Virus record (IMG/VR): IMGVR_UViG_2531839178_000021
Location: 1-39,572 of that record
DNA from: a virus
Lineage: Duplodnaviria > Heunggongvirae > Uroviricota > Caudoviricetes
Strand: one strand, 5' to 3'
Length of the DNA stretch: 39,572 nt
In this document: positions 6,770 to 33,057 of the stretch, piece after piece
How the letters are laid out: each line of letters opens with the position of its first letter
Numbering within the stretch: the stretch's first letter is position 1
Notes under the pieces: generated by a model
Told to the model about the DNA's origin: nothing
Databases searched by the model: none
Seen by the model: the letters and a program-made list of their open reading frames with translations, nothing else
Made by a program: the position numbers and the translations under genes

Positions 6770-6922
6770 ATGAATGATATCTTTGTTCTTACAAGGGAAG
6801 AGCTTGAAACACTAGATTATAGTGTTTTTATGCATATACCAGTTACATTTCATGCACATAAAATAAAAAATATCTGGATGGGATTGCTGAATCATCAGAA
6901 AACCCCAAAGAGAAAAAATTAG
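6770..6922 (+). CDS. Cargo locus ORF segment 1 (frame 2), possibly the N-terminus of one larger gene
   Basis: ATG 6770 with AAGGTG 7 nt upstream; low-GC; frame-1 ORF opens at 6862 overlapping this segment across A6 runs (6865-6870, 6913-6918). Confidence 0.45.
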   Translation: MNDIFVLTREELETLDYSVFMHIPVTFHAHKIKNIWMGLLNHQKTPKRKN

Positions 6923-6936
6923 CATCTCTTTTTGGT

Positions 6937-7242
6937 ATGCTATATAGTTTCAATTTGCAAGTTGTTAACAACACTCCATCATTTGAACCCCAAATGATTT
7001 GGGGTAATAAAAGATCAATATTGCCTGAAGATTTTGATGAGCAGGTGAATGACTGTCTTTTATATGTTTCTCAAAAAATAACCAATCCATTTTTGTTATC
7101 AAGAATATATGATGTTGTTTGGTGTAATAATCGGAAAAATAAAGACGTGGCAATTAAAGCAATTGATTCCTATGCTGAAATGCTAAATATAGCAATTGAA
7201 AAGCTAATAATAAAAACGAAAGCATGGATGAAAGTGATTTAA
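6937..7242 (+). CDS. Cargo locus ORF segment 2 (frame 1), hypothetical
   Basis: 101-aa ORF MLYSFNLQVVNNTPSFEPQMIWGNKRS...; overlaps segment 3 by 19 nt across an A5 run (7212-7216). Confidence 0.45.
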   Translation: MLYSFNLQVVNNTPSFEPQMIWGNKRSILPEDFDEQVNDCLLYVSQKITNPFLLSRIYDVVWCNNRKNKDVAIKAIDSYAEMLNIAIEKLIIKTKAWMKVI

Positions 7243-8600
7243 ATTGCTTTATTTTTGCTCGTGATTATATTGCTAGGGCTTTGCACATTAATAAAATGGT
7301 CTACCCTAGAAAATCAGAAGGAAACATGGCGATTAAAAATGCCATTCATTCTCTTTATAGTATTCAAAATGAAAGATTAATCTTTGAAGGTTTCAATAAT
7401 TTGACTTGGTTTATGGTGCGTGATTTTGATGGGTATAATCTGCAGTATGCGGAAAATGCTGAGAAGATGGCTGAGCAGCATAAAGATAAAAAATATTATG
7501 ATGCTGTAAAATCACTTTATATGACAAGTGCAGTTATTTATGAAAAAAATGGTGAGTATGAACGTGCCAAGAGATGTAAACTGGCATCTGCAAATATTAC
7601 TATTAAAGTTGCAACAGATCGACCTGATAATATGGGTAAGATCTCTTGGTTAAGAACAGCTATCTCTGAATTAAGACAGTACGGTGGTGATAGCCAACAG
7701 ATAGAAGATTTAAAGGAACAACTTGCTAATTTGAGAGAAGAAGTAAGGAGTGAATATGTCACTTTAAGCCATTCTATTGATATTAGTGACTTGGTTGCTG
7801 AAAGTGAAAAAAAACTGACGGGGCGTTCTTTGCCCGATATATTCAAAGTTTTAATGCGTGAAACACCGATTGAAAATATTGAAAGCATGAGGGAACAAGT
7901 TTTAAGATTATCAGAAAAAAGTTTATTCTCTAGTTTTGTTGGAACAGAAATTAATGATGAGAGTGGGCGTAAGATATATACAATCCCGCCGTTGGATAAT
8001 AAAAAAGATATGAGTGATGATGTTGTTATTGATCAATATCTAAGAAATTTCGAGATTACTCATAAGATTTTTGTAAACGGTGTCTTTGAACCTGCTCGCT
8101 ATGTACTTTCTCAAGAACATGGCTTGACGTTGTCAACATTCGTTAAATTGGTTACAACTAGTCCAATTGTCAAGCCGGAGTTTAGGGAGATTTTTAATTT
8201 GGGCTTTTACAAATTATGGCAGGGAGATTACATCAGTGCAGCTTATCTTTTAATACCACAAATGGAGGGTATGGTTCGTTATTATTATGAGCTTAGTGGA
8301 AAGGATGCTACTAGATATTTGGATAAGGGATTAGAGGAGTCAACAAGTATTTCTCAGCTTCTAGATAAATGCAGAGATGATTTGGAAAGTATCTTTTCTA
8401 AAAATCTTGTTTTGACTATCGATGTTCTTTTTAACAGAAAGAGTGGGGCAACCTTAAGACATAAATTAGCACATGGTAATTTATATACTAATGCTTGTTA
8501 CGATGAAACAACGACATATGCATGCATCCTGATTTTCTTTCTGTGTGCTTATCCTCTCCTACCATATTTTGATACTGTTTTTGAACAGGGCTCTGTTTGA
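7224..8600 (+). CDS. Cargo protein, 458 aa, unknown function with C-terminal HEPN-like R-x4-H motif; candidate abortive-infection/defence effector
   Basis: low-GC ORF; motif RHKLAHG encoded at 8457-8477; coiled-coil-like EDLKEQLANLREEVRSEY; no Walker A, so not an Old-type ATPase. Confidence 0.6.
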   Translation: MDESDLNCFIFARDYIARALHINKMVYPRKSEGNMAIKNAIHSLYSIQNERLIFEGFNNLTWFMVRDFDGYNLQYAENAEKMAEQHKDKKYYDAVKSLYMTSAVIYEKNGEYERAKRCKLASANITIKVATDRPDNMGKISWLRTAISELRQYGGDSQQIEDLKEQLANLREEVRSEYVTLSHSIDISDLVAESEKKLTGRSLPDIFKVLMRETPIENIESMREQVLRLSEKSLFSSFVGTEINDESGRKIYTIPPLDNKKDMSDDVVIDQYLRNFEITHKIFVNGVFEPARYVLSQEHGLTLSTFVKLVTTSPIVKPEFREIFNLGFYKLWQGDYISAAYLLIPQMEGMVRYYYELSGKDATRYLDKGLEESTSISQLLDKCRDDLESIFSKNLVLTIDVLFNRKSGATLRHKLAHGNLYTNACYDETTTYACILIFFLCAYPLLPYFDTVFEQGSV

Positions 8601-8751
8601 TAACGTATACGTTGAGGCATAAAACCTATGCATACTTAGCTGCATCAATTTGCACGAGGTATTTCAGTATGCATTTTCTGCGTAATAGTAGGGATTGCTT
8701 GGTTTGGTAGTTGTAATTCAACTGCATTCAAACCGACCCATGAAGCGGGCG

Positions 8752-8770
8752 GGCGAGGCGGGGAAAGCAC
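8752..8770. other. cos: cos site (19-nt cohesive end sequence of P2-type phages)
   Basis: GGCGAGGCGGGGAAAGCAC matches the recalled P2 cohesive end; located between the A-side cargo and Q as expected. Confidence 0.7.
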
Positions 8771-8912
8771 TGCGCGCTGGCGGTGGTGCTGATTTTATTT
8801 TTTCAGCGTCTCAGCGCGTCGTGACGGCGCTTAGTCTGCCCGTTGGGGTGTTGGTGTGTCTGCGGGCTGTTTTGTGCTGTGGTGAGCGTGTGAGGGCGTG
8901 ATGACGGGATGT

Positions 8913-8934
8913 AAAAAAGCCGCCCGCAGGCGGC
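8913..8934 (-). terminator. Rho-independent terminator downstream of Q
   Basis: minus strand GCCGCC-tgcg-GGCGGC followed by TTTTTT. Confidence 0.6.
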
Positions 8935-8939
8935 GATGT

Positions 8940-9929
8940 TCAGCCGTTGTCAGTGTCCAGTGAGTAGTTTTTAAAGCGGATGACCTCCTGACCGAGCCAG
9001 CCGTTTATCTCGCGGATCCTGTCCTGTAACGGGATAAGCTCATTGCGGACAAAGACCTTTGCCACTTTCTCAATATCACCCAGCGACCCGACGTTCTCCG
9101 GCTTGCCGCCCATCAACTGAAAGGGGATGCGGTGCGCGTCAAGCAGGTCAGCGGCGCTGGCTTTTTTGATATTAAAAAAATCGTCCTTCGTTGCCACTTC
9201 ACTGAGCGGGATAATTTTAATGCCGTCGGCTTTTCCCTGTGGGGCATAGAGAAACAGGTTTTTAAAGTTGTTGCGGCCTTTCGACTTCACCATGTTTTCG
9301 CGAAGCGTTTCGATATCGTTGCGATCCTGCACGGCATCAGTGACGTACATGATATATCCGGCATGAGCGCCGTTTTCGTAATACTTGCGGCGGAACAGCG
9401 TGGCCGACTCATTCAGCCAGGCAGAATTAAGGGCGCTGAGATATTCCGGCAGACCGTACAGCTCCTGATTAATATCCGGCTCCAGCAGGTGAAACACGGA
9501 TCCGGGCGCGAAGGCTGTCGGCTCGTTAAAGGACGGCACCCACCAGTAAACATCCTCCTCCACGCCACGGCGGGTATATTTTGCCGGTGAGGTTTCCAGT
9601 CTGATGACCTTACCGGTGGTGCTGTAACGCTTTTCCAGAAACGCATTACCGAACACCAGAAAATCCAGCACAAAGCGGCTGAAATCCTGCTGGGACAGCC
9701 ACGGGTGCGGGATAAACGTTGAAGCCAGAATATTACGTTTGACGTAAATCGGTGAGCTGTGATGCACGGCAGCACGCAGGCTTTTTGCCAGACCGGTAAA
9801 GCTGATTGGTGGCTCATACCATCTGCTGTTACTGATGCATTCGACGTAATCCAGAATGTCACGGTGGTCGAGTACCGGCACCGGCTCACCAAAGGTGAAT
9901 ACCTCCATTTTCGGGGCGCTGGCGGTCAT
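8940..9929 (-). CDS. Q: Portal protein Q; N-terminus frame-broken (probable true start ATG at 9973)
   Basis: 329-aa ORF MTASAPKMEVFTFGEPVPVLDHRDILDYVECISNSRWYEPP; upstream ATG at 9973-9971 with GGAG 8 nt upstream, out of frame by one base across a 5-nt homopolymer (plus-strand T-run 9960-9964). Confidence 0.85.
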   Translation of the reverse strand: MTASAPKMEVFTFGEPVPVLDHRDILDYVECISNSRWYEPPISFTGLAKSLRAAVHHSSPIYVKRNILASTFIPHPWLSQQDFSRFVLDFLVFGNAFLEKRYSTTGKVIRLETSPAKYTRRGVEEDVYWWVPSFNEPTAFAPGSVFHLLEPDINQELYGLPEYLSALNSAWLNESATLFRRKYYENGAHAGYIMYVTDAVQDRNDIETLRENMVKSKGRNNFKNLFLYAPQGKADGIKIIPLSEVATKDDFFNIKKASAADLLDAHRIPFQLMGGKPENVGSLGDIEKVAKVFVRNELIPLQDRIREINGWLGQEVIRFKNYSLDTDNG

Positions 9930-10034
9930 TGTTTTTGCCGCAGGTTGCGGTGTTTTCCCTTTTTCTTGCTCATCAGTAAAACTCCAGAATGGTGGATGTC
10001 AGCGGAGTGCTGATACCGGCGGTGAGTGGCTCAT

Positions 10035-11744
10035 TTAACAGGGCGTGCATGGTCGCCCAGGCGAGGTCGGCGTGGCTGGCTTCCTCGCTGCGGCTGGCCT
10101 CATAGGTGGCCTGCGTCCGCTGCTGGTCATGGTCTTGCGGATAGCCATGAACGAGCTGGTGATGTCGGTGGCGCTGACGTCATATTCCAGACAGCCACGG
10201 CGGATAACGTCTTTTGCCTTGAGCACCATTGCGGTTTTCATTTCCGGCGTGTAGCGGATGTCGCGCGCGGCGGGATAGAACGAGCGCACAAGCTGGAACA
10301 CGCCGACACCGAGGCCGGTGGCATCAATACCGATGTATTCGACGTTGTATTTTTCGGTGAGTTTGCGGATGGATTCCGTCTGGGTGGCAAAGTCCATACC
10401 TTTCCACTGGTGACGCTCAAGTATTCTGAATTTGCCACCGGCCACCACCGGCGGTGCCAGTACCACGCATCCGGCGCTGTCGCCACGGTGTGACGGGTCG
10501 TAACCAATCCATACCGGTCGGGAGCCGAACGGATTGGCGGCAAACGGCGCATAGTCTTCCCATTCTTCCAGCGTGTCGACCATGCAGCGTTGCAGCTCCT
10601 CGAACGGGAATACCGATGCCTTGTCGTCAACAAATTCACACATGAACAGGTTTTTAAAATCGTCGGCGCTGTTTTCGCGTTTAAGCTGCTCAATGTCGAA
10701 CAGCGTGCAGCCACCTTTCAGGGCGTCCTCAATGGTGACAATCTGCCGCCACTGGCCGTCCGCACAGAGAAGCCCACCGGCAAGGGCGTTATGACTGATG
10801 TCGATTTCCACGCGTTCGGCGGCGCTGGCGCGTCCCCGGTTAAACAGTTCACCCGACCAGAACGGGTAGGCGTCGTGCGCCAGCGTGGACGGGGTGGAGA
10901 AATAGGTCGAGCGCAGGTGACTCTGTGAGGCCATACCTGATGCCATCTTACGCAGTACCTGAAAATTCGGGATCCAGAACATCTCGTCGACGTACAGGTC
11001 GCCGTTATGGCTCTGCGCGGTGTTGGAGTTGGTGCCGAGAAAAATCAGTTTTGCGCCGTTATTGCCCAGGACAATCGGGTCACCGGTCAGGTCAACGTCA
11101 ACCAGCCGGGCAAAGGCGATGATGTATTCGCGGAACACATACGCCTGTGTTTTACTGGCCGACAGAAAAATCTGGTTATGACCGGTTTTCAGGGCGCGCA
11201 GCAGCGCCTCGCGGGAAAAATAAAACGTCGCGCCAATCTGGCGGGATTTCAGGATATCGCGGATGCGGTGCTCAAGCCCGGCGCGATACCAGTGCAACTG
11301 ATATTCGAAAGACTGCTCAAAGAAAATCTGCTCCAGCTTTTCGATGGCTTCGTCACTGAAAAAATTCTTTTTCGGTTTGCGACGCCCGCCTTTGTTGCGG
11401 TTAGCGACGTTCGGATTAAGGTCTGCCTCGTTGCCGGTCTGACTGTAGCGGTTGACCCGCGCCAGTCGTTCAATCTGGCGTCCCAGCAGGTCAATTTCCT
11501 TGAAGTCACCGCCGGTTTTCTGCGGTTTGATAATGAGCTGGGTCAGCCGCGCTTCCAGACTCATTTCGACACGGCTGATGGGGGCAACGCTGTCCCAGCC
11601 GTCGCGCTGTTTCCAGCTCTGCACCGTCGGGCGTTTCATCTGCAACATGGCGGCAATCTGCGGCACGGAAAACCCCTGCCAGTACAGCAGCGCCGCCTGA
11701 CGACGCGGGTCGTGCAAAAGAGTGGTGTCTGTGGTGATGGTCAT
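10035..11744 (-). CDS. P: Terminase large (ATPase) subunit P; 3' end frame-broken
   Basis: MTITTDTTLLHDPRRQAALLYWQGFSVPQIAAM...; C-terminal ~30 codons are Pro/Arg-rich, while the adjacent frame gives ..YEASRSEEASHADLAWATMHALLNEPLTAGISTPLTSTILEFY ending in TGA overlapping the upstream Q ATG (TGATG). Confidence 0.85.
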   Translation of the reverse strand: MTITTDTTLLHDPRRQAALLYWQGFSVPQIAAMLQMKRPTVQSWKQRDGWDSVAPISRVEMSLEARLTQLIIKPQKTGGDFKEIDLLGRQIERLARVNRYSQTGNEADLNPNVANRNKGGRRKPKKNFFSDEAIEKLEQIFFEQSFEYQLHWYRAGLEHRIRDILKSRQIGATFYFSREALLRALKTGHNQIFLSASKTQAYVFREYIIAFARLVDVDLTGDPIVLGNNGAKLIFLGTNSNTAQSHNGDLYVDEMFWIPNFQVLRKMASGMASQSHLRSTYFSTPSTLAHDAYPFWSGELFNRGRASAAERVEIDISHNALAGGLLCADGQWRQIVTIEDALKGGCTLFDIEQLKRENSADDFKNLFMCEFVDDKASVFPFEELQRCMVDTLEEWEDYAPFAANPFGSRPVWIGYDPSHRGDSAGCVVLAPPVVAGGKFRILERHQWKGMDFATQTESIRKLTEKYNVEYIGIDATGLGVGVFQLVRSFYPAARDIRYTPEMKTAMVLKAKDVIRRGCLEYDVSATDITSSFMAIRKTMTSSGRRPPMRPAAARKPATPTSPGRPCTPC

Positions 11745-11917
11745 GAATACCTCGCCGTGATGAATACACGGCAAGGCTACTGAGTCGCGCCCCGCGATTC
11801 GCTAAGGTGCTGTTGTGTCAGTGATAAGCCATCCGGGACTGATGGCGGAGGATGCGCATCGTCGGGAAACTGATGCCGACATGTGACTCCTCTAATCACT
11901 ATTCAGGACTCCTGACA

Positions 11918-12772
11918 ATGGCAAAAAAAGTCTCAAAATTCTTTCGTATCGGCGTTGAGGGTGACACCTGTGACGGGCGTGTCATCAGTGCGCAGGATAT
12001 TCAGGAAATGGCCGAAACCTTTGACCCGCGTGTCTATGGTTGCCGCATTAACCTGGAACATCTGCGCGGCATCCTGCCTGACGGTATTTTTAAACGTTAT
12101 GGCGATGTGGTCGAACTGAAGGCCGAAAAGATTGATGACGATTCGGCGCTGAAAGGCAAATGGGCGCTGTTTGCGAAAATCACCCCGACCGATGACCTTA
12201 TCGCGATGAACAAGGCCGCGCAGAAGGTCTACACCTCAATGGAAATTCAGCCGAACTTTGCCAACACCGGCAAATGTTATCTGGTGGGGCTGGCCGTCAC
12301 CGATGACCCGGCAAGCCTCGGCACGGAATATCTGGAGTTCTGCCGCACGGCAAAACACAACCCTCTGAACCGCTTCAAATTAAGCCCTGAGAACCTTATT
12401 TCAGTGGCAACGCCCGTTGAGCTGGAATTTGAAGACCTGCCTGAAACCGTGTTCACCGCCCTGACCGAAAAGGTGAAGTCCATTTTTGGCCGCAAACAGG
12501 CCAGCGATGACGCCCGCCTGAATGACGTGCATGAAGCGGTGACCGCTGTTGCTGAACATGTGCAGGAAAAACTGAGCGCCACTGAGCAGCGCCTCGCTGA
12601 GATGGAAACCGCCTTTTCCGCACTTAAGCAGGATGTGACTGACAGGGCGGATGAAACCAGCCAGGCATTCACCCGCCTGAAAAACAGTCTCGACAGCACC
12701 GAAAGTCTGACCCAGCAGCGCCGCAGCAAAGCCACCGGCGGTGGCGGTGACGCCCTGATGACGAACTGCTGA
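11918..12772 (+). CDS. O: Capsid scaffolding protein O
   Basis: MAKKVSKFFRIGVEGDTCDGRVISAQDIQEMAETFDPRVYGCRINLEHLRG; divergent from P. Confidence 0.85.
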   Translation: MAKKVSKFFRIGVEGDTCDGRVISAQDIQEMAETFDPRVYGCRINLEHLRGILPDGIFKRYGDVVELKAEKIDDDSALKGKWALFAKITPTDDLIAMNKAAQKVYTSMEIQPNFANTGKCYLVGLAVTDDPASLGTEYLEFCRTAKHNPLNRFKLSPENLISVATPVELEFEDLPETVFTALTEKVKSIFGRKQASDDARLNDVHEAVTAVAEHVQEKLSATEQRLAEMETAFSALKQDVTDRADETSQAFTRLKNSLDSTESLTQQRRSKATGGGGDALMTNC

Positions 12773-12845
12773 CCGGCGTCAGTCAGTCCGGGAAAACCTT
12801 CACGATTAACCCTTAATTTCAGGAAAAACTATGCGCCAGGAAACC

Positions 12846-14271
12846 TAATGCCGATCAGTTAAGGATCAGTTGACCGATCCAGTGGCTGTGTAAGAATCCG
12901 GAAACGCTCACTTGTTTCCGGATTTTTTTATGCACATTGGACAGGCTCTTGATCTGGTATCCCGTTACGATTCTCTGCGTAACCCACTGACTTCTCTGGG
13001 GGATTACCTCGACCCCGAACTCATCTCTCGTTGCCTTGCCGAATCAGGTACTGTAACGCTACGCAAGCGCCGTCTTCCCCTCGAAATGATGGTCTGGTGT
13101 ATTGTTGGCATGGCGCTTGAGCGTAAAGAACCTCTTCACCAGATTGTGAATCGCCTGGACATCATGCTGCCGGGCAATCGCCCCTTCGTTGCCCCCAGTG
13201 CCGTTATTCAGGCCCGCCAGCGCCTGGGAAGTGAGGCTGTCCGCCGCGTGTTCACGAAAACAGCGCAGCTCTGGCATAACGCCACGCCGCATCCGCACTG
13301 GTGCGGCCTGACCCTGCTGGCCATCGATGGTGTGTTCTGGCGCACACCGGATACACCAGAGAACGATGCAGCCTTCCCCCGCCAGACACATGCCGGGAAC
13401 CCGGCGCTCTACCCGCAGGTCAAAATGGTCTGCCAGATGGAACTGACCAGCCATCTGCTGACGGCTGCAGCCTTCGGCACGATGAAGAACAGCGAAAATG
13501 AGCTTGCTGAGCAACTTATAGAACAAACCGGCGATAACACTCTGACGTTAATGGATAAAGGTTATTACTCACTGGGACTGTTAAATGCCTGGAGCCTGGC
13601 GGGAGAACACCGCCACTGGATGATACCTCTCAGAAAGGGAGCGCAATATGAAGAGCTCAGAAAACTGGGTAAAGGCGATCATCTGGTGAAGCTGAAAACC
13701 AGCCCGCAGGCACGAAAAAAGTGGCCGGGACTGGGAAATGAAGTGACAGCCTGCCTGCTGACCGTGACGCGCAAAGGAAAAGTCTGCCATCTGCTGACGT
13801 CGATGACGGACGCCATGCGCTTCCCCGGAGGAGAAATGGCGGATCTGTACAGTCATCGCTGGGAAATCGAACTGGGATACAGGGAGATAAAACAGACGAT
13901 GCAACTGAGCAGGCTGACGCTGAGAAGTAAAAAGCCGGAGCTTGTGGAGCAAGAGCTGTGGGGTGTCTTACTGGCTTATAATCTGGTGAGATATCAGATG
14001 ATTAAAATGGCGGAACATCTGAAAGGTTACTGGCCGAATCAACTGAGTTTCTCAGAATCATGCGGAATGGTGATGAGAATGCTGATGACATTGCAGGGCG
14101 CTTCACCGGGACGTATACCGGAGCTGATGCGCGATCTTGCAAGTATGGGACAACTTGTGAAATTACCGACGAGAAGGGGAAGGGCCTTCCCGAGAGTGGT
14201 AAAGGAGAGGCCCTGGAAATACCCCACAGCCCCGAAAAAGAGCCAGTCAGTTGCTTAACTGACTGGCATTA
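12846..14271 (+). mobile_element. IS4, 1426 bp, with 13-bp target-site duplication gcgccaggaaacc
   Basis: ends taatgccgatcagttaag ... cttaactgactggcatta; identical 13-mers at 12833-12845 and 14272-14284. Confidence 0.9.
12930..14258 (+). CDS. insG: IS4 transposase (442 aa)
   Basis: [71 protein letters not shown]. Confidence 0.9.
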
Positions 14272-15346
14272 GCGCCAGGAAACCCGCTTTAAATTTAATG
14301 CCTACCTGTCCCGTGTTGCCGAACTGAACGGCATCGACGCCGGTGATGTGTCGAAAAAATTCACCGTTGAACCGTCGGTCACCCAGACCCTGATGAACAC
14401 CATGCAGGAGTCCTCTGACTTTCTGACCCGCATCAACATTGTGCCGGTCAGCGAAATGAAAGGGGAAAAAATTGGCATCGGTGTCACCGGCTCCATCGCC
14501 AGCACCACCGACACCGCCGGTGGGACTGAGCGTCAGCCGAAGGACTTCTCGAAGCTGGCGTCTAACAAGTACGAATGCGACCAGATTAACTTCGATTTTT
14601 ATATCCGCTACAAAACGCTTGACCTGTGGGCGCGTTATCAGGATTTCCAGCTCCGTGTCCGTAACGCCATTATCAAACGCCAGTCCCTTGATTTCATCAT
14701 GGCCGGTTTTAACGGCGTGAAGCGTGCCGAAACTTCTGACCGCAGCAGCAATCCGATGTTGCAGGATGTGGCGGTCGGCTGGTTGCAGAAATACCGCAAT
14801 GAAGCCCCGGCGCGCGTGATGAGCAAGGTCACTGACGAGGAAGGGCGCACCACCTCTGAGGTTATCCGCGTGGGTAAGGGCGGCGATTATGCCAGCCTTG
14901 ATGCACTGGTGATGGATGCGACCAACAACCTGATTGAACCGTGGTATCAGGAAGACCCTGACCTTGTGGTGATTGTGGGACGTCAGCTACTGGCGGACAA
15001 GTATTTCCCCATCGTCAACAAAGAGCAGGACAACAGCGAAATGCTGGCCGCTGATGTCATCATCAGCCAGAAACGCATCGGTAACCTGCCGGCGGTACGC
15101 GTCCCGTACTTCCCGGCGGATGCGATGCTCATCACGAAGCTGGAAAACCTGTCCATCTACTACATGGATGACAGCCATCGCCGCGTGATTGTGGAAAACC
15201 CGAAACTCGACCGCGTGGAGAACTACGAGTCAATGAACATTGATTACGTGGTGGAAGACTATGCCGCCGGTTGTCTGGTGGAGAAAATTAAGGTCGGTGA
15301 TTTCTCCACACCGGCTAAAGCGACCGCAGAGCCGGGAGCGTAACCG

Positions 15347-15640
15347 ATGACGAGTCCCGCACAGCGCCACATGATGCGGGTCTCGGCAGCGATGACCGCG
15401 CAGCGGGAAGCCGCCCCGCTGCGACATGCAACTGTCTATGAGCAGATGCTGGTTAAGCTCGCCGTAGACCAGCGCACACTGAAAGCAATTTATTCAAAAG
15501 AGCTGAAGGCCGCGAAAAAACGCGAACTGCTGCCGTTCTGGTTGCCGTGGGTGAATGGCGTGCTGCCGCACGGCACCGCCGTCGAACTGCCCGACGTTCA
15601 GACCGCGCCCGTGGCTGAAACTGTCAATCTGTGGGAGTAA
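15347..15640 (+). other. 97-codon ORF, probably an in-frame fusion remnant of terminase small subunit M (5' part) and tail protein X (3' end) left by deletion of most of M, all of L and most of X
   Basis: only ~300 bp separate N stop (15343) from holin Y start (15644), where P2 order N-M-L-X-Y needs ~1.4 kb; the M and X assignments of the two halves are from memory. Confidence 0.5.
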
Positions 15641-15643
15641 CGC

Positions 15644-15925
15644 ATGACAGCAGAAGAAAAAAGCGTTCTGTCGCTTTTCATGATTGGGGTGCTGATTGTT
15701 GTCGGCAAGGTGCTTGCCGGTGGTGAACCCATCACCCCGCGTCTGTTTATCGGGCGCATGTTGCTCGGTGGTTTTGTCTCGATGGTTGCCGGTGTTGTTC
15801 TGGTGCAGTTTCCTGACCTGTCACTGCCTGCGGTGTGCGGCATTGGCTCCATGCTGGGTATCGCCGGTTATCAGGTGATTGAGATTGCCATTCAGCGCCG
15901 CTTTAAGGGCAGGGGGAAACCGTAA
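15644..15925 (+). CDS. Y: Holin Y
   Basis: 93-aa ORF with hydrophobic helices MTAEEKSVLSLFMIGVLIVVGKVLAGG...; precedes endolysin. Confidence 0.85.
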   Translation: MTAEEKSVLSLFMIGVLIVVGKVLAGGEPITPRLFIGRMLLGGFVSMVAGVVLVQFPDLSLPAVCGIGSMLGIAGYQVIEIAIQRRFKGRGKP

Positions 15926-16422
15926 TGCCGGTTATTAACACGCATCAGAATATCGCCGCCTTTCTCGACATGCTGGCCGTGTCCGAAGGGACGGCGAATC
16001 ATCCGCTGACGAAAAAACGGGGCTATGACGTGATAGTCACCGGACTGGACGGAAAGCCGGAAATTTTCACCGACTACAGTGACCACCCGTTCGCGCATGG
16101 CCGACCGGCGAAGGTGTTTAACCGTCGCGGTGAAAAATCCACGGCCTCCGGTCGCTATCAGCAGCTTTACCTGTTCTGGCCGCACTACCGCAAACAGCTT
16201 GCCCTGCCGGATTTCAGTCCGTTGTCACAGGACAGACTTGCCATTCAGTTGATCCGTGAACGCGGTGCACTGGATGACATCCGGGCGGGACGCATTGAGC
16301 GCGCCATTTCACGCTGTCGCAATATCTGGGCGTCCCTGCCGGGTGCCGGTTACGGTCAGCGTGAGCATTCACTGGAAAAACTGGTCACCGTCTGGCGTAC
16401 CGCTGGCGGCGTACCTGCTTAA
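15925..16422 (+). CDS. K: Endolysin K (lysozyme-like)
   Basis: MPVINTHQNIAAFLDMLAVSEGTANHPLTKKRGYDVIVTGLDGKPEIFTDYSDHPF. Confidence 0.85.
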   Translation: MPVINTHQNIAAFLDMLAVSEGTANHPLTKKRGYDVIVTGLDGKPEIFTDYSDHPFAHGRPAKVFNRRGEKSTASGRYQQLYLFWPHYRKQLALPDFSPLSQDRLAIQLIRERGALDDIRAGRIERAISRCRNIWASLPGAGYGQREHSLEKLVTVWRTAGGVPA

Positions 16423-16436
16423 ACGGAGTAAACACC

Positions 16437-20528: not shown

Positions 20529-20532
20529 AACC

Positions 20533-23444: not shown

Positions 23445-23775
23445 ATTTCAGCGCCCGGATATTACTGCCATCCAGCGCGGTGGCAGACCAGTCAATAAAG
23501 CCGTTTGCATCAAGTAGCGAAAGCAACCTGTTGAAAATAATATTAATCACGCCTGACTTTGACCATCGGTTAAAGCGGTTATAAACAGTTTTCCATGACC
23601 CATATCGTTCGGGTAAATCGCGCCATGGTGCACCGGAACATAACACCCAGAACATGCCATTGATGATTTTACGGTGCTCAGCCCATGGGCGTCCGGCCCG
23701 TGGTGTGGCGGGTTCAGGAGGTAACAGGGGCTTGATGATGGTCCATGCCTCATCGGGAAGGTCGTAGCGAGCCAT
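23401..23775 (-). CDS. IS transposase OrfA (copy 2); with A6 the OrfB frame is +1 rather than -1
   Basis: MARYDLPDEAWTIIKPLLPP...AQKTSRYRRR stop. Confidence 0.7.
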   Translation of the reverse strand: MARYDLPDEAWTIIKPLLPPEPATPRAGRPWAEHRKIINGMFWVLCSGAPWRDLPERYGSWKTVYNRFNRWSKSGVINIIFNRLLSLLDANGFIDWSATALDGSNIRALKCAAGAQKTSRYRRR

Positions 23776-24682
23776 AGTTCAATATGTTGTGTAAACAGAC
23801 AGTTACTATAGCTCAGATGATTAAGGGACACAGCCTAGTGTTTTTTATGTTGAAGCCAGAGCTTTCCCTGTACAAATTCTTGCAGAGGAAGGGCTAACGG
23901 TTATTGTTCCGACAGAGGATTATGTCGTCGGTCAAACGACATATAAGTGGGGGGCAACTAATCCCGCTACAGAAAGCACGAACGCACAGGCTATTCTGGA
24001 TTTTAAAAATGGACGTGGTTATTACTGTTCACATCCATTTATTTCCAGCCTTTCAGGAAATGCTGCAACAGCAACGAAGTTAGCGAACGCAAGAAATATT
24101 AATGGTGTCAGATTTGATGGCTCTGCCGATATAAATATTAATACACTGGTATCCAGAAACCGTGTTACTGCATTAGGTGGGAGCGTAAAGGGGACACCAG
24201 GTATTCAGATGTATGAGGCATACAACAATGGCTACCCAACAGCCTATGGTAATGTGCTTCATCTCACTGGCGTAACCGCAGTAGGAGAGGGTGAGTTACT
24301 TATTGGTTGGAGTGGAACCAGCGGTGCTCATGCTCCGGCATATATTCGTTCCCGACGAGATACCACAGATGCTAACTGGTCTGGATGGGCGCAACTATAT
24401 ACAACTGCTCATAAACCCTCAGCGGGAGATGTTGGTGCATACACCAAAACTGAGTCAGATTCACGTTATGTGAGAGACATGCGGCTGGGCGGTGCATCTA
24501 CATATAAACCAGCAAATAATGGTACTACATGGACGCATCAGGCTCCGTCAGGTTGCGTATATACCGGCATTATTGTTCAGGATACCGGCTCAAACTCTGC
24601 CGATAACATTGGTGGCGTATATTACAGACCGGTGCAGAAATACATTAACGGGACATGGTATAACGTGGTGCAGGTATAATTT

Positions 24683-25210
24683 ATGCAGCATTTAAAAAAT
24701 ATTACGGCGGGTAATCCAAAAACGGTTGAACAATATCAATTGACAAAGGACTTTGATGTTGTCTGGTTTTTTTCAGAAGATGGTAAGAACTGGTACGAAG
24801 AACAAAAGTATTTTGCTGATGACACGATAAAAATAGCGTACGACAAAGATAATATCATCCACTATGTGGAAAAGGATGTGACAGCTATCAGACCGGATGG
24901 ATTAAGTGTTGTTGAAGTGGCGGATATTACTGCTAACCGACGGGCGGACATTTCAGGGAACTGGATGTTTAAGGACGGCAAAGTGATTAAACGCGTTTAT
25001 ACGGCAGAGGAATTACAGCAGCAGGCAGAAATTCGGAAAGCCAGACTTCTTGCAGATGCTGAATCCGTGATTTTGCCGCTGGAGCGCGCGGTCAGACTGA
25101 ACATGGCAACAGATGAGGAGCGTAGCCGACTGGAATCATGGGAACGCTACAGCGTTCTGGTCAGTCGTGTGGATCCTGCAAATCCTGAATGGCCGGAAAT
25201 GCCGCAATAA
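24683..25210 (+). CDS. G: Tail fibre assembly chaperone G
   Basis: 175-aa [44 protein letters not shown] immediately after H. Confidence 0.85.
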
Positions 25211-25259
25211 GTTGTATTAGCTTACATATCTATGGCACAGAGTAAAGCCTAATCTGACA

Positions 25260-25298
25260 GTCCGCTCTGTGCCAGGAGCAGACATTGCCAACGTTATG
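25260..25298 (+). repeat. ~39-bp direct repeat, copy A (partner at 27932-27970)
   Basis: gtccgctctgtgccaggagcagacattgccaacgttatga versus gttcgctttgtgccaggagcggacgttgccagcattgag, ~85 percent identity. Confidence 0.7.
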
Positions 25299-25677
25299 AC
25301 CCTCGATTACATCAAAGAGCCCTATAGCCGAAACCTGCACCATAGCCATCTCTGTAGAATTCGTCCTAGGGGCTTTTAACAGACCTAGTTGTATGGATCG
25401 GAAGGAAATATTAAAGCTCAAGGCGTCAGTCCAGTGCTGTCCTGTTTGCTTACCACACGAAAGAGTGCTGCTTGTACCTGCTAACTAATGGTATGCGGAG
25501 TGAGGGGGGCGGGTAGAACCAAAAGCACTTACTACGTGTGGCGCTCTCCTGGAAGAGGAGACGTCGAAGTGATAACGCTAACAACAGTCTTACTGGTGAT
25601 GCAAATAATGCTAGCTGGTCTGGTTGCCATCAAGCAACTGACCGGACGCCCGTAAGGGATGGAGGAACTTGATTAAA

Positions 25678-25707
25678 GGCAGGGGGGTTACCTCCCCTGC
25701 CTTTTTC
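25678..25707 (+). terminator. Strong rho-independent terminator
   Basis: GGCAGGGG-ggttacct-CCCCTGCC followed by TTTTT; lies ~470 nt downstream of G stop with no ORF of 60 aa or more between. Confidence 0.75.
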
Positions 25708-25769
25708 GTTTCTGCGCAAGTTAGCTCTGTTATTATAATCCTTACTCACACTGTAAGGACATAGTTCAA

Positions 25770-26033
25770 ATGACTGAATGGCTTAATGCACATTTTGGTG
25801 CAGACGCAGCTACCTATCTTAGCTTATTAGTCGGCGTACTGGCACTGTTTGGTATTGGGGGCGGTGTTACATATAGAATCAGACAGCAAAACAACATAAA
25901 ACAGAAGGCAAAGAAAACCGAGGGTGATGTGAACCAGGCCGGGCGGGATATTAATCAGACCACCAACGTTTACCACACATCCAATGAATCTACTGAGGAC
26001 CCTGTAAAAAAAAGCAAGATGAACATGATCTGA
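25770..26033 (+). CDS. Membrane-anchored hypothetical protein, N-terminal segment (single TM helix)
   Basis: TATAAT at 25734-25739; MTEWLNAHFGADAATYLSLLVGVLALFGIGGGV; ORF ends just after an A8 run (26006-26013) where the next ORF's frame opens. Confidence 0.55.
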   Translation: MTEWLNAHFGADAATYLSLLVGVLALFGIGGGVTYRIRQQNNIKQKAKKTEGDVNQAGRDINQTTNVYHTSNESTEDPVKKSKMNMI

Positions 26034-26056
26034 AGATAATCGACCAGATCCTTGAA

Positions 26057-26452
26057 TTGCTGCCTTATGAGGATACTACTCAATGGGTTGAGCAGAGCTA
26101 CCTGAGCGGTATACGGCAAGATGTTTGCTTAAACATTGAAAAAGCTGAAAAATTTAGCGGTGAAAAGTATCGGTTATTCAATACTGAAGTGAATGGTGCG
26201 AAAGACGCTTTTTTGGACGCTATGACCGCATACGTAGATAGTACGCTACCATTTATGAGTGTTGATTACCCGAACAGAAAGCCAGTGATGCTAAGCCTTC
26301 CCCATGACTGGAAGAGTAAGAGTGTTGAATCGGAGGCAAACTTCCGCTTTCATCAGCAAAATGTGCGTGAAACATCGGGGGGGATGATTGCGCGCTATGA
26401 GGATTTTGTCAGGACATTTAAGGCTCATGGATTCATAAGCGATAAACTGTAA
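26057..26452 (+). CDS. Hypothetical protein segment lacking an ATG start; probably the C-terminal part of one ~227-aa gene 25770-26452 broken by a 1-nt deletion
   Basis: frame open from 25997; ORF-track start is TTG; frame offset from 25770 is of deletion type. Confidence 0.5.
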   Translation: MLPYEDTTQWVEQSYLSGIRQDVCLNIEKAEKFSGEKYRLFNTEVNGAKDAFLDAMTAYVDSTLPFMSVDYPNRKPVMLSLPHDWKSKSVESEANFRFHQQNVRETSGGMIARYEDFVRTFKAHGFISDKL

Positions 26453-26545
26453 AGGCGCAGTGGGTCAGCGAACACCGCAACGACAGAACCGCGTAAGCGG
26501 TAAAATCAGCTTGTTAACTGGCGAGTTTATAGCCGTCCCTCCGGG

Positions 26546-27846
26546 CTGAGGGATCCCCACAAAATTACTGCTAATAAACCAGTACCATATTTCGGTAGGT
26601 TCTGGACAGATGGTTTAGAACTGTGCTCAGTACTGTTCGTCTTAAAATAAGTGGCGAGTGTCGAAGAACATTCTTCGCTAACGTCAGATATGAGATAACC
26701 CGCCGGGATTTAATGCTGTTAGCCTGATATTTCAGGTGTAACCCTTTATTTTCAGCGTGATAACCGAGTAACCACATTACGATAGTGCTCAACGTTGCCA
26801 GCAGACTCAGAACCAGAATTCTTCCTGTTGAACGACTTTTGCTGGCCCGAAGACCAAATCCGAAGCGCCCGTTCTTTTCATCACGAAAGTTTTGCTCTAT
26901 CTGCATTCGCCGACTGTATAACTTGATGATTTCTCGCGCTCTGAAGTCATTTGTACTGCTGAAGATCAACCAGGCTTCTTTTGCTGATTTGCTCTGTTCT
27001 TTGTCTGTTTTGTTTAAACCACTCTGACCTTTCGAACGTTTCTTTTTTCGCCCTTTTGCCGATTTCTTATAGGTGTAAAAATGCCCCCGGATGCTTTTTT
27101 TCCTTTCTTTAACCAGCCTTCCAGCCCCCATATATTCCGGTGTTTTACATTCAGGGCTATCCGACACTTTTAACCATCTTTCAGGCGCGTTATCGAGGCA
27201 ATACTGAACGTTATTTCTGATCCGACCAATAAAATCCCAGCCCAGAGAAGTAATATGGTGAAACCATGCGCTCTGAAATCCAGCATCCGTGACAATAATA
27301 ACCCTGGCATCGGGGGGCAGGGATTGAGCAAGGGAATCAAGGAAATCATGTTGTATCAATGGATTATTTTGTTTTTCAGAAGGAACAACCTTACTCAATA
27401 ACGGAATGGAACGCCCGTCACACAGAAGGCTGGCACGAAGAACATGATGCTCCTGGGAGGGATAGCCACTCCAGTCTACGGCTATTACACATAAAGATAA
27501 CTGCCGTGTCAGCATTGAAGTGATATTCCTGAAAATCATTGGAATATCGCGATGGAGCGCCTCATTACCCATGAGGCGATCAATACGTTTGCTCTTATTC
27601 TTAACTTGTGCATTACCCGGGAAAAAACGTCCGATACTGGTCAGCGTCAGAGATGCTCCGTTGATTAACGCCACTGTGGCATCCATCAGGGCATTTTGTC
27701 GGTACTGATGAAATGGTGCTAAGGCATCCCGGAAGAAATTCTGACATACTTTATGAACAGGCATAGCAGTGATCTCATTGAATTGTTGGCACAAATCAGT
27801 AGATCACATAATGCTATGTCTGTCTCGTTTTCTGGGAATTCCTCAG
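26546..27846 (-). mobile_element. IS10-like (IS4-family) insertion sequence, ~1.3 kb, with 9-bp target-site duplication CCCTCCGGG
   Basis: ends CTGAGGGATCCCC (26546-) and its reverse complement (-27846); identical 9-mers at 26537-26545 and 27847-27855. Confidence 0.8.
26571..27764 (-). CDS. IS10-like transposase (~397 aa)
   Basis: KRIDRLMGN, VDWS, VLRAS, TDAGFQSAWF, SLGW, SKGRKKKRS, SAKEAW, IKLYSRRMQIEQNFRD, FGLRAS: motifs shared with the IS10 transposase. Confidence 0.8.
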   Translation of the reverse strand: MPVHKVCQNFFRDALAPFHQYRQNALMDATVALINGASLTLTSIGRFFPGNAQVKNKSKRIDRLMGNEALHRDIPMIFRNITSMLTRQLSLCVIAVDWSGYPSQEHHVLRASLLCDGRSIPLLSKVVPSEKQNNPLIQHDFLDSLAQSLPPDARVIIVTDAGFQSAWFHHITSLGWDFIGRIRNNVQYCLDNAPERWLKVSDSPECKTPEYMGAGRLVKERKKSIRGHFYTYKKSAKGRKKKRSKGQSGLNKTDKEQSKSAKEAWLIFSSTNDFRAREIIKLYSRRMQIEQNFRDEKNGRFGFGLRASKSRSTGRILVLSLLATLSTIVMWLLGYHAENKGLHLKYQANSIKSRRVISYLTLAKNVLRHSPLILRRTVLSTVLNHLSRTYRNMVLVY

Positions 27847-29041: not shown

Positions 29042-29063
29042 AACTTGAGTTATTGGTTAAAAT

Positions 29064-29816
29064 TCATTTAGGAATAATAGAATGCAATTCGTGACTCACC
29101 TGGATTTCATAGTGTTTCAATAGTTCTCCGATGTTAATTCCTACTACCTTACGAACTGCGCCGAGGGAGAAGTTAAGCTCCTCAATGCCCGGCCGATCTG
29201 GCGTTGAATTCATATAGTGTCGGCACGCACGGACAATTGACTCGACGATCAACGATAGCGGAGACTCAGGTGCAATCTCGGAGCGAATCGCCGTAAGAGA
29301 GAGTCGGAGCTCCTTCAAAGAATCCGAGACTCGTGCTGGATCCTCTTGAGCATATGGCAGATAAAGAGAACTCTTGTCTTCCAATAAATGGATCAACCGC
29401 AGAGCAATTTTCTCGTCTGGGCGATGCGATAGAAATTGAAACATTAGCCTCTTTCCTCCCTCCAAGCACTCCTTCATTAGTGATTCGTGGTCACGTTTCC
29501 ATTTTCGCAAATACTCGGCGGGGTAGCCCATACCGCCATTCTTATCAACTAAATCAGCACAAGCTCCGCACAACCATATAGCATTTTTTATGCTCTTCCG
29601 CTCTGTTTCTGACTGAGACATGTCATAGCGCGGTCCGCCAGGGCTCGCCGCGCAGATATGCGCCGCCTCACCCGTCTTGATAGAAAGATTTTCCGCCAAT
29701 TGATCCGGGCCGATTGTTACCCTATGACAAGAGGGATTGCTACAAATATATGTAGCGCGCTCTGCTACCTTACCTACAACGCTTGGAGGAAAGTTGTGCC
29801 TATTTGTCTTGGTCAT
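29064..29816 (-). CDS. Hypothetical protein with N-terminal Cys/His cluster resembling an HNH/His-Me-finger nuclease motif
   Basis: YICSNPSCH ... AAHICAASPGG ... NAIWLCGACADLVD; mid-GC; the IS630 copy lies ~70 bp upstream of its start. Confidence 0.45.
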   Translation of the reverse strand: MTKTNRHNFPPSVVGKVAERATYICSNPSCHRVTIGPDQLAENLSIKTGEAAHICAASPGGPRYDMSQSETERKSIKNAIWLCGACADLVDKNGGMGYPAEYLRKWKRDHESLMKECLEGGKRLMFQFLSHRPDEKIALRLIHLLEDKSSLYLPYAQEDPARVSDSLKELRLSLTAIRSEIAPESPLSLIVESIVRACRHYMNSTPDRPGIEELNFSLGAVRKVVGINIGELLKHYEIQVSHELHSIIPK

Positions 29817-29887: not shown

Positions 29888-31041
29888 AATAGCTGCGCTT
29901 AATACCGCTACACTTTTGCCAGTCCATGTTTGCCTCCGGGGAATGGGCTGACGGTTTCCATAAAATGGCGAACTTTTTTCAACAGTTGCCACATTGAGCG
30001 GCACTGATGATTACGCGTTATTGTGTCGTGAAGTGCCTGCCATAGCCGTTCAACATGATTCACCCATGGCGAGTAAACCGGCTGATAAATGACCCTGAAC
30101 TTCGGGTTCTCCTTCAGCCAGCTCTGTGTTTCCCGGCTTTTGTGGATAATGTAGTTGTCCACGATCAGCGTGATGGTTTTCGCCCGACGCTATGTCGCTT
30201 TAAGCCGCTTCAGCAGGCTGATGAACAGCGCCGAACTTTTTGCTGTTGCCGCCCACATAGCTGACTTTACCTGTCCCGCTGTGCAGCGCTCCGGCCAGAT
30301 AATATTTTTCATTCTGTCCCGGCGTGACCACCCGTTTTTGCTGTCCGCGCAGTTGCCAGTCCGCACCGATTTTGGGATGAAGATGGATATCCACTTCATC
30401 TTCATAAAAGACCGGATGCTCTGCGCTGCATTCGTCCAGTGCTTTATGGATTGCTGCCATCTTTTCATCTTTATGCGGGTCACGGATACGCAGAGTTGGC
30501 GCAGCCCTTCGCCACACAATCCCCGCAGACGGCAACCAGCGGCGAACGGTTCCGGCATTTAACTGGCAACCGGTTATCTCATTGATTTTTATTGCCAGCA
30601 GTTCTGTACTCCAGCGTGAACGCTGGTAGCCAAAGTCGCCGGGAGAATGTTTTACCAGCTCACGTAACAGTGTGCAGATATGCTCAAACGGCCAGCGACG
30701 GGCACGCCCGGCAGGTAATGATTTCAGTCCCTCAACACCCGACTGCGTGAACCAGTTAATCCAGCGTCCAACAGAGGAACGGGCGCAGCAGAGCGTTCTG
30801 GCAACGTCGCTGACACGGTCGCCCCGGTGCAGCATCAGCATGGCAGTCAGTCTGCGGGCATAATTTTTATCGTGTGTTTTATGGATGGCTTTCTGCATCA
30901 GGCGTCGTTCGTCACGGGAAATTGGTGCTATGATCGGCATTGCTCAGTCCGGTTGGTGATTTGTTTTGATTTGGCGATTGATCAGATCGCACAATCCGGG
31001 CTAAGTTCCCTCAAAATGATCTACTATTCCGCGCAGCTATT
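29888..31041 (-). mobile_element. IS630-family insertion sequence (1154 bp), TA duplication within a CTAG target
   Basis: terminal repeats aatagctgcgc (29888-) and gcgcagctatt (-31041); TA at 29886-29887 and 31042-31043 flanked by C and G. Confidence 0.85.
29908..30940 (-). pseudogene. IS630 transposase, split into two ORFs (30200-30940 and 29908-30162) by a frame break
   Basis: N-part MPIIAPISRDERRLMQKAIHKTHDKNYARRL.. and C-part ..NYIIHKSRETQSWLKENPKFRVIYQPVYSPWVNHVERLW together approximate the recalled single 343-aa IS630 transposase. Confidence 0.75.
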
Positions 31042-31214
31042 TAGGTCTGACCAGCAACCTATTGATCAAAAAACCAAGATATTAGCTAAAAAAATCAGCA
31101 TACTTGAGACCAAGCTCAATGTCCGCTCCTCGCTCAAAGCAGACTGTCAGATTTGATAGCATTTGGGCTATGTAAATTGTCAGGCGGAAAATGAGTGAGT
31201 ACAAATCAGGACAG

Positions 31215-31240
31215 GCGGGCGAATTGCCCGCATTTTCTTT
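31215..31240 (+). terminator. Hairpin with T-tract upstream of the FI late promoter region
   Basis: GCGGGC-gaatt-GCCCGC followed by ATTTTCTTT. Confidence 0.4.
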
Positions 31241-31336
31241 ATCTGTTGTTTCATCCCCTGACCAGCCAGGTCAAATAGCGTCTCATGCTCTGCACAACAG
31301 AAAATAGTTGCACCCATTAACCACGGAGTTAAACGG

Positions 31337-32527
31337 ATGAGTGACTATCATCACGGCGTGCAGGTGCTGGAGATTAACGACGGCACCCGCGTCATTTCCA
31401 CCGTATCCACGGCCATTGTCGGCATGGTCTGCACGGCCAGCGATGCAGATGCGGAAACCTTCCCCTTCAATAAACCGGTGCTGATTACCAATGTGCAGAG
31501 CGCAATTGCAAAGGCCGGTAAAAAAGGCACGCTGGCGGCGTCGTTACAGGCCATCGCTGACCAGTCAAAACCGGTCACCGTTGTTGTGCGCGTGGAAGAC
31601 GGCACCGGCGACGACGAAGAAACGAAGCTCGCGCAGACCGTTTCCAATATCATCGGCACCACCGACGAAAACGGTCAGTACACCGGACTGAAAGCCCTGC
31701 TGGCGGCGGAGTCGGTAACCGGTGTTAAACCGCGCATTCTCGGTGTGCCGGGACTGGATACCAAAGAGGTGGCTGTTGCACTGGCATCAGTCTGTCAGAA
31801 GCTGCGCGCTTTCGGGTATATCAGCGCATGGGGCTGTAAAACCATTTCCGAGGTGAAAGCCTACCGCCAGAATTTCAGCCAGCGTGAGCTGATGGTCATC
31901 TGGCCGGATTTCCTCGCATGGGATACGGTCACCAGTACCACCTCCACCGCGTATGCCACCGCCCGTGCGCTGGGGCTGCGCGCTAAAATCGACCAGGAGC
32001 AGGGCTGGCATAAAACGCTGTCCAACGTCGGGGTGAACGGTGTTACCGGCATCAGCGCGTCCGTATTCTGGGATTTGCAGGAGTCCGGCACCGATGCTGA
32101 CCTGCTTAACGAGTCAGGCGTCACAACGCTGATTCGCCGTGACGGTTTCCGCTTCTGGGGTAACCGTACCTGCTCTGATGACCCGCTGTTCCTCTTTGAA
32201 AACTACACCCGCACCGCGCAGGTGCTGGCCGACACGATGGCTGAGGCGCACATGTGGGCGGTGGACAAGCCCATCACCGCAACGCTGATTCGCGACATCG
32301 TTGACGGCATCAATGCCAAATTCCGTGAGCTGAAAACAAACGGCTATATCGTGGATGCGACCTGCTGGTTCAGCGAAGAATCCAACGATGCGGAAACCCT
32401 CAAGGCCGGAAAACTGTATATCGACTACGACTATACACCGGTGCCTCCTCTCGAAAACCTGACCCTGCGCCAGCGTATTACCGATAAATACCTGGCAAAT
32501 CTGGTCACCTCGGTTAACAGCAATTAA
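31337..32527 (+). CDS. FI: Tail sheath protein FI
   Basis: 396-aa ORF MSDYHHGVQVLEINDGTRVISTVSTAIVGMV. Confidence 0.9.
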   Translation: MSDYHHGVQVLEINDGTRVISTVSTAIVGMVCTASDADAETFPFNKPVLITNVQSAIAKAGKKGTLAASLQAIADQSKPVTVVVRVEDGTGDDEETKLAQTVSNIIGTTDENGQYTGLKALLAAESVTGVKPRILGVPGLDTKEVAVALASVCQKLRAFGYISAWGCKTISEVKAYRQNFSQRELMVIWPDFLAWDTVTSTTSTAYATARALGLRAKIDQEQGWHKTLSNVGVNGVTGISASVFWDLQESGTDADLLNESGVTTLIRRDGFRFWGNRTCSDDPLFLFENYTRTAQVLADTMAEAHMWAVDKPITATLIRDIVDGINAKFRELKTNGYIVDATCWFSEESNDAETLKAGKLYIDYDYTPVPPLENLTLRQRITDKYLANLVTSVNSN

Positions 32528-32539
32528 GGAGCCTGACCG

Positions 32540-33057
32540 ATGGCAATGCCGCGCAAACTCAAGTTAATGAACGTCTTTCTGAACGGCTACAGCTATCAGG
32601 GCGTTGCAAAGTCCGTCACGCTGCCAAAACTGACCCGTAAACTCGAAAACTATCGCGGTGCGGGGATGAACGGAAGCGCACCGGTAGACCTCGGCCTTGA
32701 TGACGATGCGCTGTCAATGGAGTGGTCGCTCGGGGCTTCCCGGATTCGGTTATCTGGGAGCTCTACGCCGCAACCGGCGTGGATGCCGTACCGATTCGTT
32801 TTGCTGGCTCTTACCAGCGCGACGATACCGGCGAAACGGTGGCCGTCGAGGTGGTCATGCGTGGCCGTCAGAAAGAAATCGACACCGGCGAGGGGAAACA
32901 GGGAGAAGACACCGAGTCGAAAATCTCCGTGGTCTGCACCTATTTCCGGCTGACGATGGACGGTAAGGAGCTGGTCGAAATCGACACCATCAACATGATT
33001 GAGAAGGTGAACGGTGTCGACCGGCTGGAGCAACACCGCCGCAATATCGGCCTGTGA
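32540..33057 (+). pseudogene. FII: Tail tube protein FII, frame-broken at a G4 run (32732-32735)
   Basis: ORF 32540-32953 (MAMPRKLKLMNVFLNGYSYQGVAKSVTLPKL...SMEWSLG) shifts to ORF 32722-33057 (GFPDSVIWELYAATGVDAVPIRFAG...); deletion-type offset. Confidence 0.8.

Follow-up and report, generated by a model that had tools for sequence, protein, structure and literature searches.

The 39,572-nucleotide stretch of DNA analyzed here (the window) is IMG/VR virus record IMGVR_UViG_2531839178_000021 and carries a P2-like prophage of Shigella boydii strain 965-58. A preliminary description of the window, made from the letters alone, had listed eight single-nucleotide frame breaks and had weighed two causes for them, namely homopolymer under-calling in the assembly and genuine decay of the prophage. 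Comparison with independent assemblies of related strains showed that each cause holds for a part of the list. The five coding breaks that are private to this assembly, i.e., two in a cargo gene between A and cos (the A-cos cargo gene) and one each in Q, S and a cargo gene between G and FI (the G-FI cargo gene), are artefacts of the assembly or of its read set with a probability of roughly 85%. The breaks in P and FII, as judged from the sequence comparisons, are real and vertically inherited pseudogene lesions. The overall tally is probably one of about five artefacts, or six when the break in an insertion sequence (IS) copy is counted, and two real breaks.

The window corresponds to positions 57448-97019 of contig AKNA01000058.1 from S. 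boydii 965-58 (GCA_000268145.1, a draft of 2012), as established by exact-protein look-ups and a 100% DNA match. All eight breaks were found where they had been placed, and at each of them the window was one nucleotide shorter than an intact reference. The references used for this check were fiAA91-ss, phage 569R9 and a remnant in E. coli cM2a that holds the same G-FI cargo. The listed sites lie at homopolymers as described, except for P, where position 10111 is outside any homopolymer. The common direction of the breaks was confirmed for the eight listed sites and not for the window as a whole, in which an IS630 copy carries one additional T and the IS4 element has a T7 run against T6.

Real and artefactual breaks were told apart by a simple expectation, namely that an old lesion recurs in independent assemblies of relatives whereas an assembly error is private to one. 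The same criterion was described for homopolymeric tracts, in which authentic variation follows clades and errors appear as sporadic outliers (PMC4746626). Exact frameshifted products were looked up across assemblies, and the contigs carrying them were then compared with the window at the DNA level. The comparators were ERR200314, SRR8186674, ERR6005806, SRR8186692, SRR11791543, SRR8186662 with nine other samples, and GCA_013436735.1 (AATUYD01), and the short-read assemblies of clone-mates share the IS insertion points of the window. Judged in this way, the P deletion at 10111, the G4 run in FII, an in-frame TAG codon in replication gene A, a deletion fusing M to X and the IS4 insertion are shared by common descent, and the breaks in Q, S and at the three cargo-gene sites are not.

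Across 29,796 bp compared in four segments, bounded by IS elements or by the window end, the window differed from its clone-mates by nine single-nucleotide deletions, with zero insertions and zero substitutions (Table 1). All nine deletions fell in A/T runs with a true length of at least six. Four of the nine (18533, 18828, 25702 and 31088) lie outside annotated genes and had been missed in the preliminary description. In the first three segments (21.3 kb), which hold eight of the nine sites, the A/T runs that had been shortened were 5 of 34 6-mers, 1 of 6 7-mers and both 9-mers; all 60 5-mers and every G/C run kept their length. The longer run was present in every relative compared at 6865, 7212, 9960, 18028, 18533, 25702, 26006 and 31088. 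Additionally, in the first segment the assemblies of SRR8186674, ERR6005806, SRR8186692 and SRR11791543 agreed with that of ERR200314 wherever they overlapped.

None of the five coding breaks was seen in independent short-read assemblies (five to at least ten of them) that match the window at every other base, and Q (344 amino acids, aa), S (150 aa) and the G-FI cargo gene (227 aa) are intact in the comparators. At 6865, A7 was found in three loci (L011, L012 and L013) with 0-1 mismatches over 8.4-9.8 kb. For Q, six loci (L003, L011, L012, L013, L015 and L016) have T6 and the 344-aa product, and the exact 329-aa product of the window was found on a single contig. The A6 run of S and its 150-aa product were present in L003-L009, amongst them ERR200314 with zero mismatches over 8.7 kb; this tract varies in other assemblies, with A5 in L031 and L033 and A7 in L030. 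The G-FI cargo gene has A9 in a locus represented by ten samples, with zero mismatches. A 79-aa C-terminal open reading frame (ORF) of S was considered as a marker of the frameshift and discarded, since it lies downstream of the site and its presence elsewhere is uninformative. The possibility that the short-read comparators are themselves wrong was rejected, as the longer runs are supported by five to at least ten datasets of independent origin and by the intact phage references alike.

Table 1. Frame breaks, private run-length differences, compared segments and other features of the window (positions in the window; L numbers denote comparison loci).
Feature	Position	Strand	State in the window and in comparators
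A-cos cargo gene, break 1	6865-6870	+	A6 versus A7; likely under-call
A-cos cargo gene, break 2	7212-7216	+	A5 versus A6; likely under-call
Q	9960-9964	-	T5 on the plus strand versus T6, codon 3-4; likely under-call
P	10111-10112	-	GGC-CTG versus GGC[G/A]CTG, one base missing near residue 545; real
S	18028-18032	+	A5 versus A6; likely under-call
G-FI cargo gene	26006-26013	+	A8 versus A9; likely under-call
FII	32732-32735	+	G4 versus G5 or GGTGG; real frameshift
ISSfl7 copy 2, A run	23424-23429	-	A6 (T6 on the plus strand) versus A7 in copy 1
T run outside annotated genes	18533-18537		T5; T6 in the SRR059778 Logan assembly (L032) and ERR200314 (L005)
Non-coding T run	25702-25706		T5; T6 in L078 (SRR059778) and L077 (10 samples)
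Non-coding A run	31088-31094		A7; A8 in L085 (0 mismatches over 8.5 kb), L055 and L057-L060; likely under-call
Segment compared with ERR200314 (L011)	3070-12873		0 mismatches; window gaps at 6865, 7212, 9960
Segment compared with ERR200314 (L005)	14245-22946		0 mismatches; window gaps at 18028, 18533, 18828
Segment compared with L077 (SRR8186662 and 9 other samples)	23815-26569		0 mismatches; window gaps at 25702, 26006
Segment compared with L085 (AATUYD01)	31047-39572		0 mismatches; window gap at 31088
IS630, T run	30237-30241	-	T5 versus T4, +1 insertion; T4 at the same locus in L048, L055, L057
A-cos cargo gene (DUF7380/DUF4209)	6770-8600	+	three pieces: 6770-6922, 6937-7242, 7224-8600
In-frame TAG in replication gene A	4971-4973	+	CAG in fiAA91-ss; real nonsense lesion
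M(1-80)::X(36-67) in-frame fusion	15347-15640	+	real; loss of L together with the M 3' end and the X 5' end
ISSfl7 copy 1	2178-3098		in gene B
ISSfl7 copy 2	22918-23837		inverted, in gene H
IS4	12846-14271		between O and N
IS4-family element and IS630 copy	IS630 about 29888-31041		G-FI region

The private differences are most likely explained by a length-dependent under-calling of A/T homopolymers, as by flow-chemistry sequencers such as 454, in which case Q, S and both cargo genes would be intact in the real genome. The pattern consists of under-calls only, is linked to run length, is blind to coding, is private to one dataset, is free of substitutions and is discordant between assemblies, and in this combination it points to the homopolymer error signature of flow chemistry. 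It is from this pattern that we infer both the platform and the mechanism of the error.

The isolate's own reads were also informative. Run SRR059778 is evidently the 965-58 read set, since its Logan contigs align to the window without a mismatch and have most of the private run lengths too. At 18533 and 25702, the Logan assembly of this run has T6 where the deposited contig has T5, which indicates that the deposited consensus contains run-length errors unsupported by the reads. At the other sites the short run is a systematic feature of the reads. One SRR059778 contig (L014) stops precisely at the A6 run of 6865, and this end fits a branch of the assembly graph between A6 and a longer run; the observation is only suggestive, and it is weakened by contigs of other samples that end away from runs too. 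Contig AKNA01000058.1 spans several IS copies of 0.9-1.4 kb, at which short-read assemblies break, and this would fit the longer or paired reads of that period.

A number of observations weigh against an artefactual origin of the private breaks. The assembly from the isolate's own reads reproduces six of the nine under-calls (7212, 9960, 18028, 18828, 26006 and 31088), and if the platform behind SRR059778 were an accurate one, these six deletions would be real private mutations. That platform was not found in the literature under the strain, the accessions or the likely genome paper. At 18828, T9 was seen only in ERR200314, and S. dysenteriae CP027027 has T8 like the window. Real tract changes do occur in this prophage, as the run at 7807-7814, which is A8 in the window and in ERR200314, is A7 in three sister strains (L012, L013 and L015), where it splits the A-cos cargo gene into 349 + 248 aa; in this part of the clone the tract frameshift is genuine. 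Additionally, A8, A9 and A10 alleles of the 227-aa gene are found in many assemblies, and in a dead prophage selection would spare real frameshifts.

The six reproduced short runs, the defective state of the prophage and the tract change at 7807-7814 would be accounted for if the private deletions were real mutations of 965-58. Such mutations could have arisen in a stock deficient in mismatch repair, or by neutral slippage where the prophage is silent and selection relaxed. We consider this explanation very unlikely. Substitutions outnumber small indels in E. coli mutation-accumulation studies, even in mismatch-repair mutants. Nine indels with zero substitutions in 29.8 kb would be very unlikely for real mutations, and with an indel fraction of 0.2 the probability of eight out of eight is about 3e-6. 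Real mutations would also have to be deletions in nine of nine cases, each in an A/T run of at least six, and the deposited contig contradicts its own reads at two T-runs. Furthermore, no other sample carries these alleles on this background.

The breaks in P and FII occur in every lineage assembly, whatever the type of data, and this argues that they are real. The P frameshift leaves a product of 569 aa instead of 590, which was found as an exact match on 9-10 contigs (NCBI and Logan), and the window has no gap at 10111 relative to S. dysenteriae CP027027 and six Logan assemblies. For FII, the 111-aa C-terminal ORF requires G4, and the exact product is present on 135 contigs. Look-ups with this C-terminal piece returned many unrelated P2-like prophages, some from visibly error-rich assemblies, and lineage relatives were for this reason collected with the lineage-specific T and FI proteins. 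The relatives obtained in this way carry G4 (L048, L049, L055-L061 and L085-L087), and the carriers include S. dysenteriae 1012 (AAMJ02), UYIS01, CP027027, the draft QWSB01, the Logan assembly of ERR5982220 and S. boydii AATUYD010000160.1, the last of which is base-identical to the window over 8.5 kb.

A reading in which all eight breaks are artefacts, and P and FII are intact too, would draw on the single direction of the eight changes and on the G5 run at the FII site. It is refuted by the P and FII states common to relatives, and we give it next to no credence. The P lesion lies outside a homopolymer and is present in every relative, in draft and complete NCBI genomes as well as in Logan assemblies of independent runs. 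The G4 run of FII was found in 13 lineage loci, from drafts both old and new, from complete genomes and from AATUYD01, which is base-identical to the window.

The FII G4 allele was also observed in four unrelated P2-like prophages (L046, L051, L052 and L053; position 7003-7020 in each), in which the neighbouring phage genes are apparently intact, and the G5 run may be a hotspot of recurrent mutation or of miscalls. In DAJVRE010000073.1 (L061), the frameshifted FII contains a further deletion of 22 bp, aligned at about 32839, an instance of continuing decay.

The eighth break concerns ISSfl7, an element of the IS5 family with a length of 921 bp that is present twice in the window. Copy 1 has the canonical A7 run at 2586-2592 (plus strand), with orfA and orfB in the 0 and -1 frames as in a programmed -1 frameshift, and E. 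coli ISSfl7 copies that differ from it by 1-2 bases are annotated by the Prokaryotic Genome Annotation Pipeline (PGAP) with a two-piece 'programmed frameshift' transposase coding sequence. As A7 is the programmed -1 site, the two-frame layout of ISSfl7 is normal and is not a break in itself; the part of the earlier claim that stood is the abnormal A6 length in copy 2. In copy 2, the A6 run shifts orfB to frame +1 with respect to orfA, a layout that is not that of a programmed frameshift, and a -1 slip in the copy as written would be unable to yield the transposase fusion. The two copies differ in nothing but the length of this run. The A6 is more likely to be an under-call than a real change, as it lies in an A/T run of the 7-mer class in otherwise identical copies; short-read assemblies collapse IS copies.

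Longer runs were seen in two other elements. The IS630 run is T4 in the same-locus copies of three S. dysenteriae genomes, and the additional T of the window breaks the 343-aa transposase into pieces of 246 and 84 aa. The T7 run of IS4 at 12923-12929, just upstream of the transposase ATG, is T6 in the same-locus copy of CP027027. These could be over-calls or real changes.

The two interrupted cargo genes raised the question of phase variation. The A-cos cargo gene, which lies in one of the two P2 cargo hotspots, starts with an ATG at 6770 and is a single intact gene of 610 aa in the Logan assembly of ERR200314. Its protein has a full-length match to PDC-S39, a candidate defence family of PADLOC (E=1.5e-84). 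In the G-FI cargo gene, the A8 at 26006 splits the 227-aa gene into 87 + 131 aa. Across assemblies the tract of this gene is A9 on more than 1000 contigs, A8 on 59 contigs from several genomic contexts and A10 (84 aa) on 13 contigs, and matching split forms exist in Morganella, Serratia and Raoultella. The poly-A of the 227-aa gene may be a hypermutable tract or a site of recurrent miscalls.

If the A8/A9 tract of the 227-aa gene and the A6/A7 tract of the PDC-S39-like gene were phase-variable, the 965-58 culture could have been mixed or in the OFF state, which would be consistent with the A8, A9 and A10 alleles in E. coli and Shigella, with the split forms in other genera, and with the end of contig L014 at 6865 if run lengths were mixed amongst the reads. 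We regard this as highly unlikely, as runs of 5-7 A's are short for efficient slippage, the same pattern is present in runs outside annotated genes and in Q and S, which have no reason to vary, and at least ten clone-mates all have A9; contigs also break away from runs in other samples. The more specific idea that the poly-A tracts (A9 in the G-FI cargo gene and A7/A8 in the PDC-S39-like gene) are ON/OFF switches of candidate anti-phage genes, with 965-58 being OFF, is distinctly unlikely. Read-set or assembly error is the most likely explanation for both cargo genes.

Other cargo and run-length observations are reported here for completeness. A DUF6650 protein encoded at 29064-29816 has an N-terminal domain that matches PDC-M68A and nuclease effector models in PADLOC (E=6.6e-24). 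The S-V junction (18300-19560) contains about 1.2 kb of extra minus-strand cargo with a 188-aa gene and a second ORF, for which no Pfam, NCBIfam or PADLOC match was found; the T8/T9 run at 18828-18835 alters the second ORF (149 versus 168 codons, stop to stop). The complete genome CP026824.1 shows many single-nucleotide deletions in G-runs and C-runs relative to the window and to other relatives, and it looks like this genome carries homopolymer errors of its own. A sister assembly with neighbouring accessions (E. coli EPECa12, AKNH01) was likewise set against its relatives, none of which was base-identical to it.

The window is a P2-like (Peduovirus) prophage by gene order, cos and high identity. 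Peduovirus phages match it at 95-97% identity, and tblastn with 40 fiAA91-ss proteins recovered the complete P2 gene order with matches of 90-100% identity: an int-like gene, C, B, orf80-83, A, Q, P, O, N, M, X, Y, K, lysA, lysB, R, S, V, W, J, I, H, G, FI, FII, E, T, U, D and ogr. The alignment with fiAA91-ss begins at window position 8752, which corresponds to base 1 (cosL) of the fiAA91-ss record. The prophage is situated between yegQ and yegR, with the host yegQ on its right side, and the same remnant adjoins yegR in relatives. A look-up of the yegQ protein intended for a wider homopolymer audit (71,926 blocks) did not return the 965-58 contig.

The preliminary description had also raised the possibility that the prophage is being pseudogenised beyond its IS damage. 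This holds, on evidence of a different kind from the private breaks, i.e., P, FII, the nonsense codon in gpA and the M-L-X deletion. The TAG codon, which had not been listed before, divides gpA into pieces of 200 and 559 aa, a split that all lineage relatives have in common with the window, and 50 contigs from S. boydii and S. dysenteriae carry the exact 97-aa M::X fusion product. With its IS insertions, the M-L-X deletion and the nonsense codon in gpA, the prophage is already dead. These lesions are common to S. dysenteriae strains with the same remnant, and the decay is for that reason older than this split; the element had lost its function before the 965-58 clone diverged. In the tail-fibre gene H, three diverged 132-bp tandem units were seen at 22493-22888, followed by the interruption by ISSfl7 copy 2, and about 22691 the gene has 12 bp extra relative to the S. 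dysenteriae relatives.

These results bear on the use of the deposited assembly. At least five pseudogene or split-gene calls are probably false, i.e., those for the portal gene Q, the tail-completion gene S, the PDC-S39-like gene (two sites) and the 227-aa gene, and studies that draw on GCA_000268145.1 to count pseudogenes or to gauge prophage decay would arrive at inflated figures. The PDC-S39-like candidate defence gene looks broken but is probably whole in this clone; should both of its breaks be artefacts, the dead prophage still holds it in working length. The prophage as such has long been dead, as is shown by its real lesions (P, FII, the nonsense codon in gpA, the M-L-X deletion and the IS insertions), and S. 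dysenteriae strains have the remnant by common descent. Additionally, the look-up of exact frameshifted products provides a quick way of sorting real from artefactual breaks when raw reads are out of reach.

Nothing observed here is outside known phenomena, and the value of the analysis is practical rather than conceptual. The private differences resemble under-calling of the 454 or Ion Torrent type in being confined to homopolymers, in rising with run length, in affecting coding and non-coding runs alike, in the disagreement between assemblies of the same reads and in their absence from accurate assemblies of clone-mates; they differ from it in that only A/T runs are affected here, with few long G/C runs to test. 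ISSfl7 is a known element that copy 1 matches in its 921 bp and A7 run, and from which copy 2 departs by its A6. As with contingency loci, the tract of the 227-aa gene varies in length (A8, A9 and A10) over several genera, but the diversity seen here is only between strains, and recurrent miscalls or one-off mutations fit it equally well. Finally, the element as a whole is like other cryptic, IS-riddled P2-like prophages of Shigella and E. coli related to fiAA91-ss, with which it shares the P2 gene order at 95-99% identity along with insertions of IS4, ISSfl7, IS630 and an IS4-family element, a deletion, a nonsense codon and two inherited frameshifts, and nothing unusual sets the 965-58 prophage apart from them.

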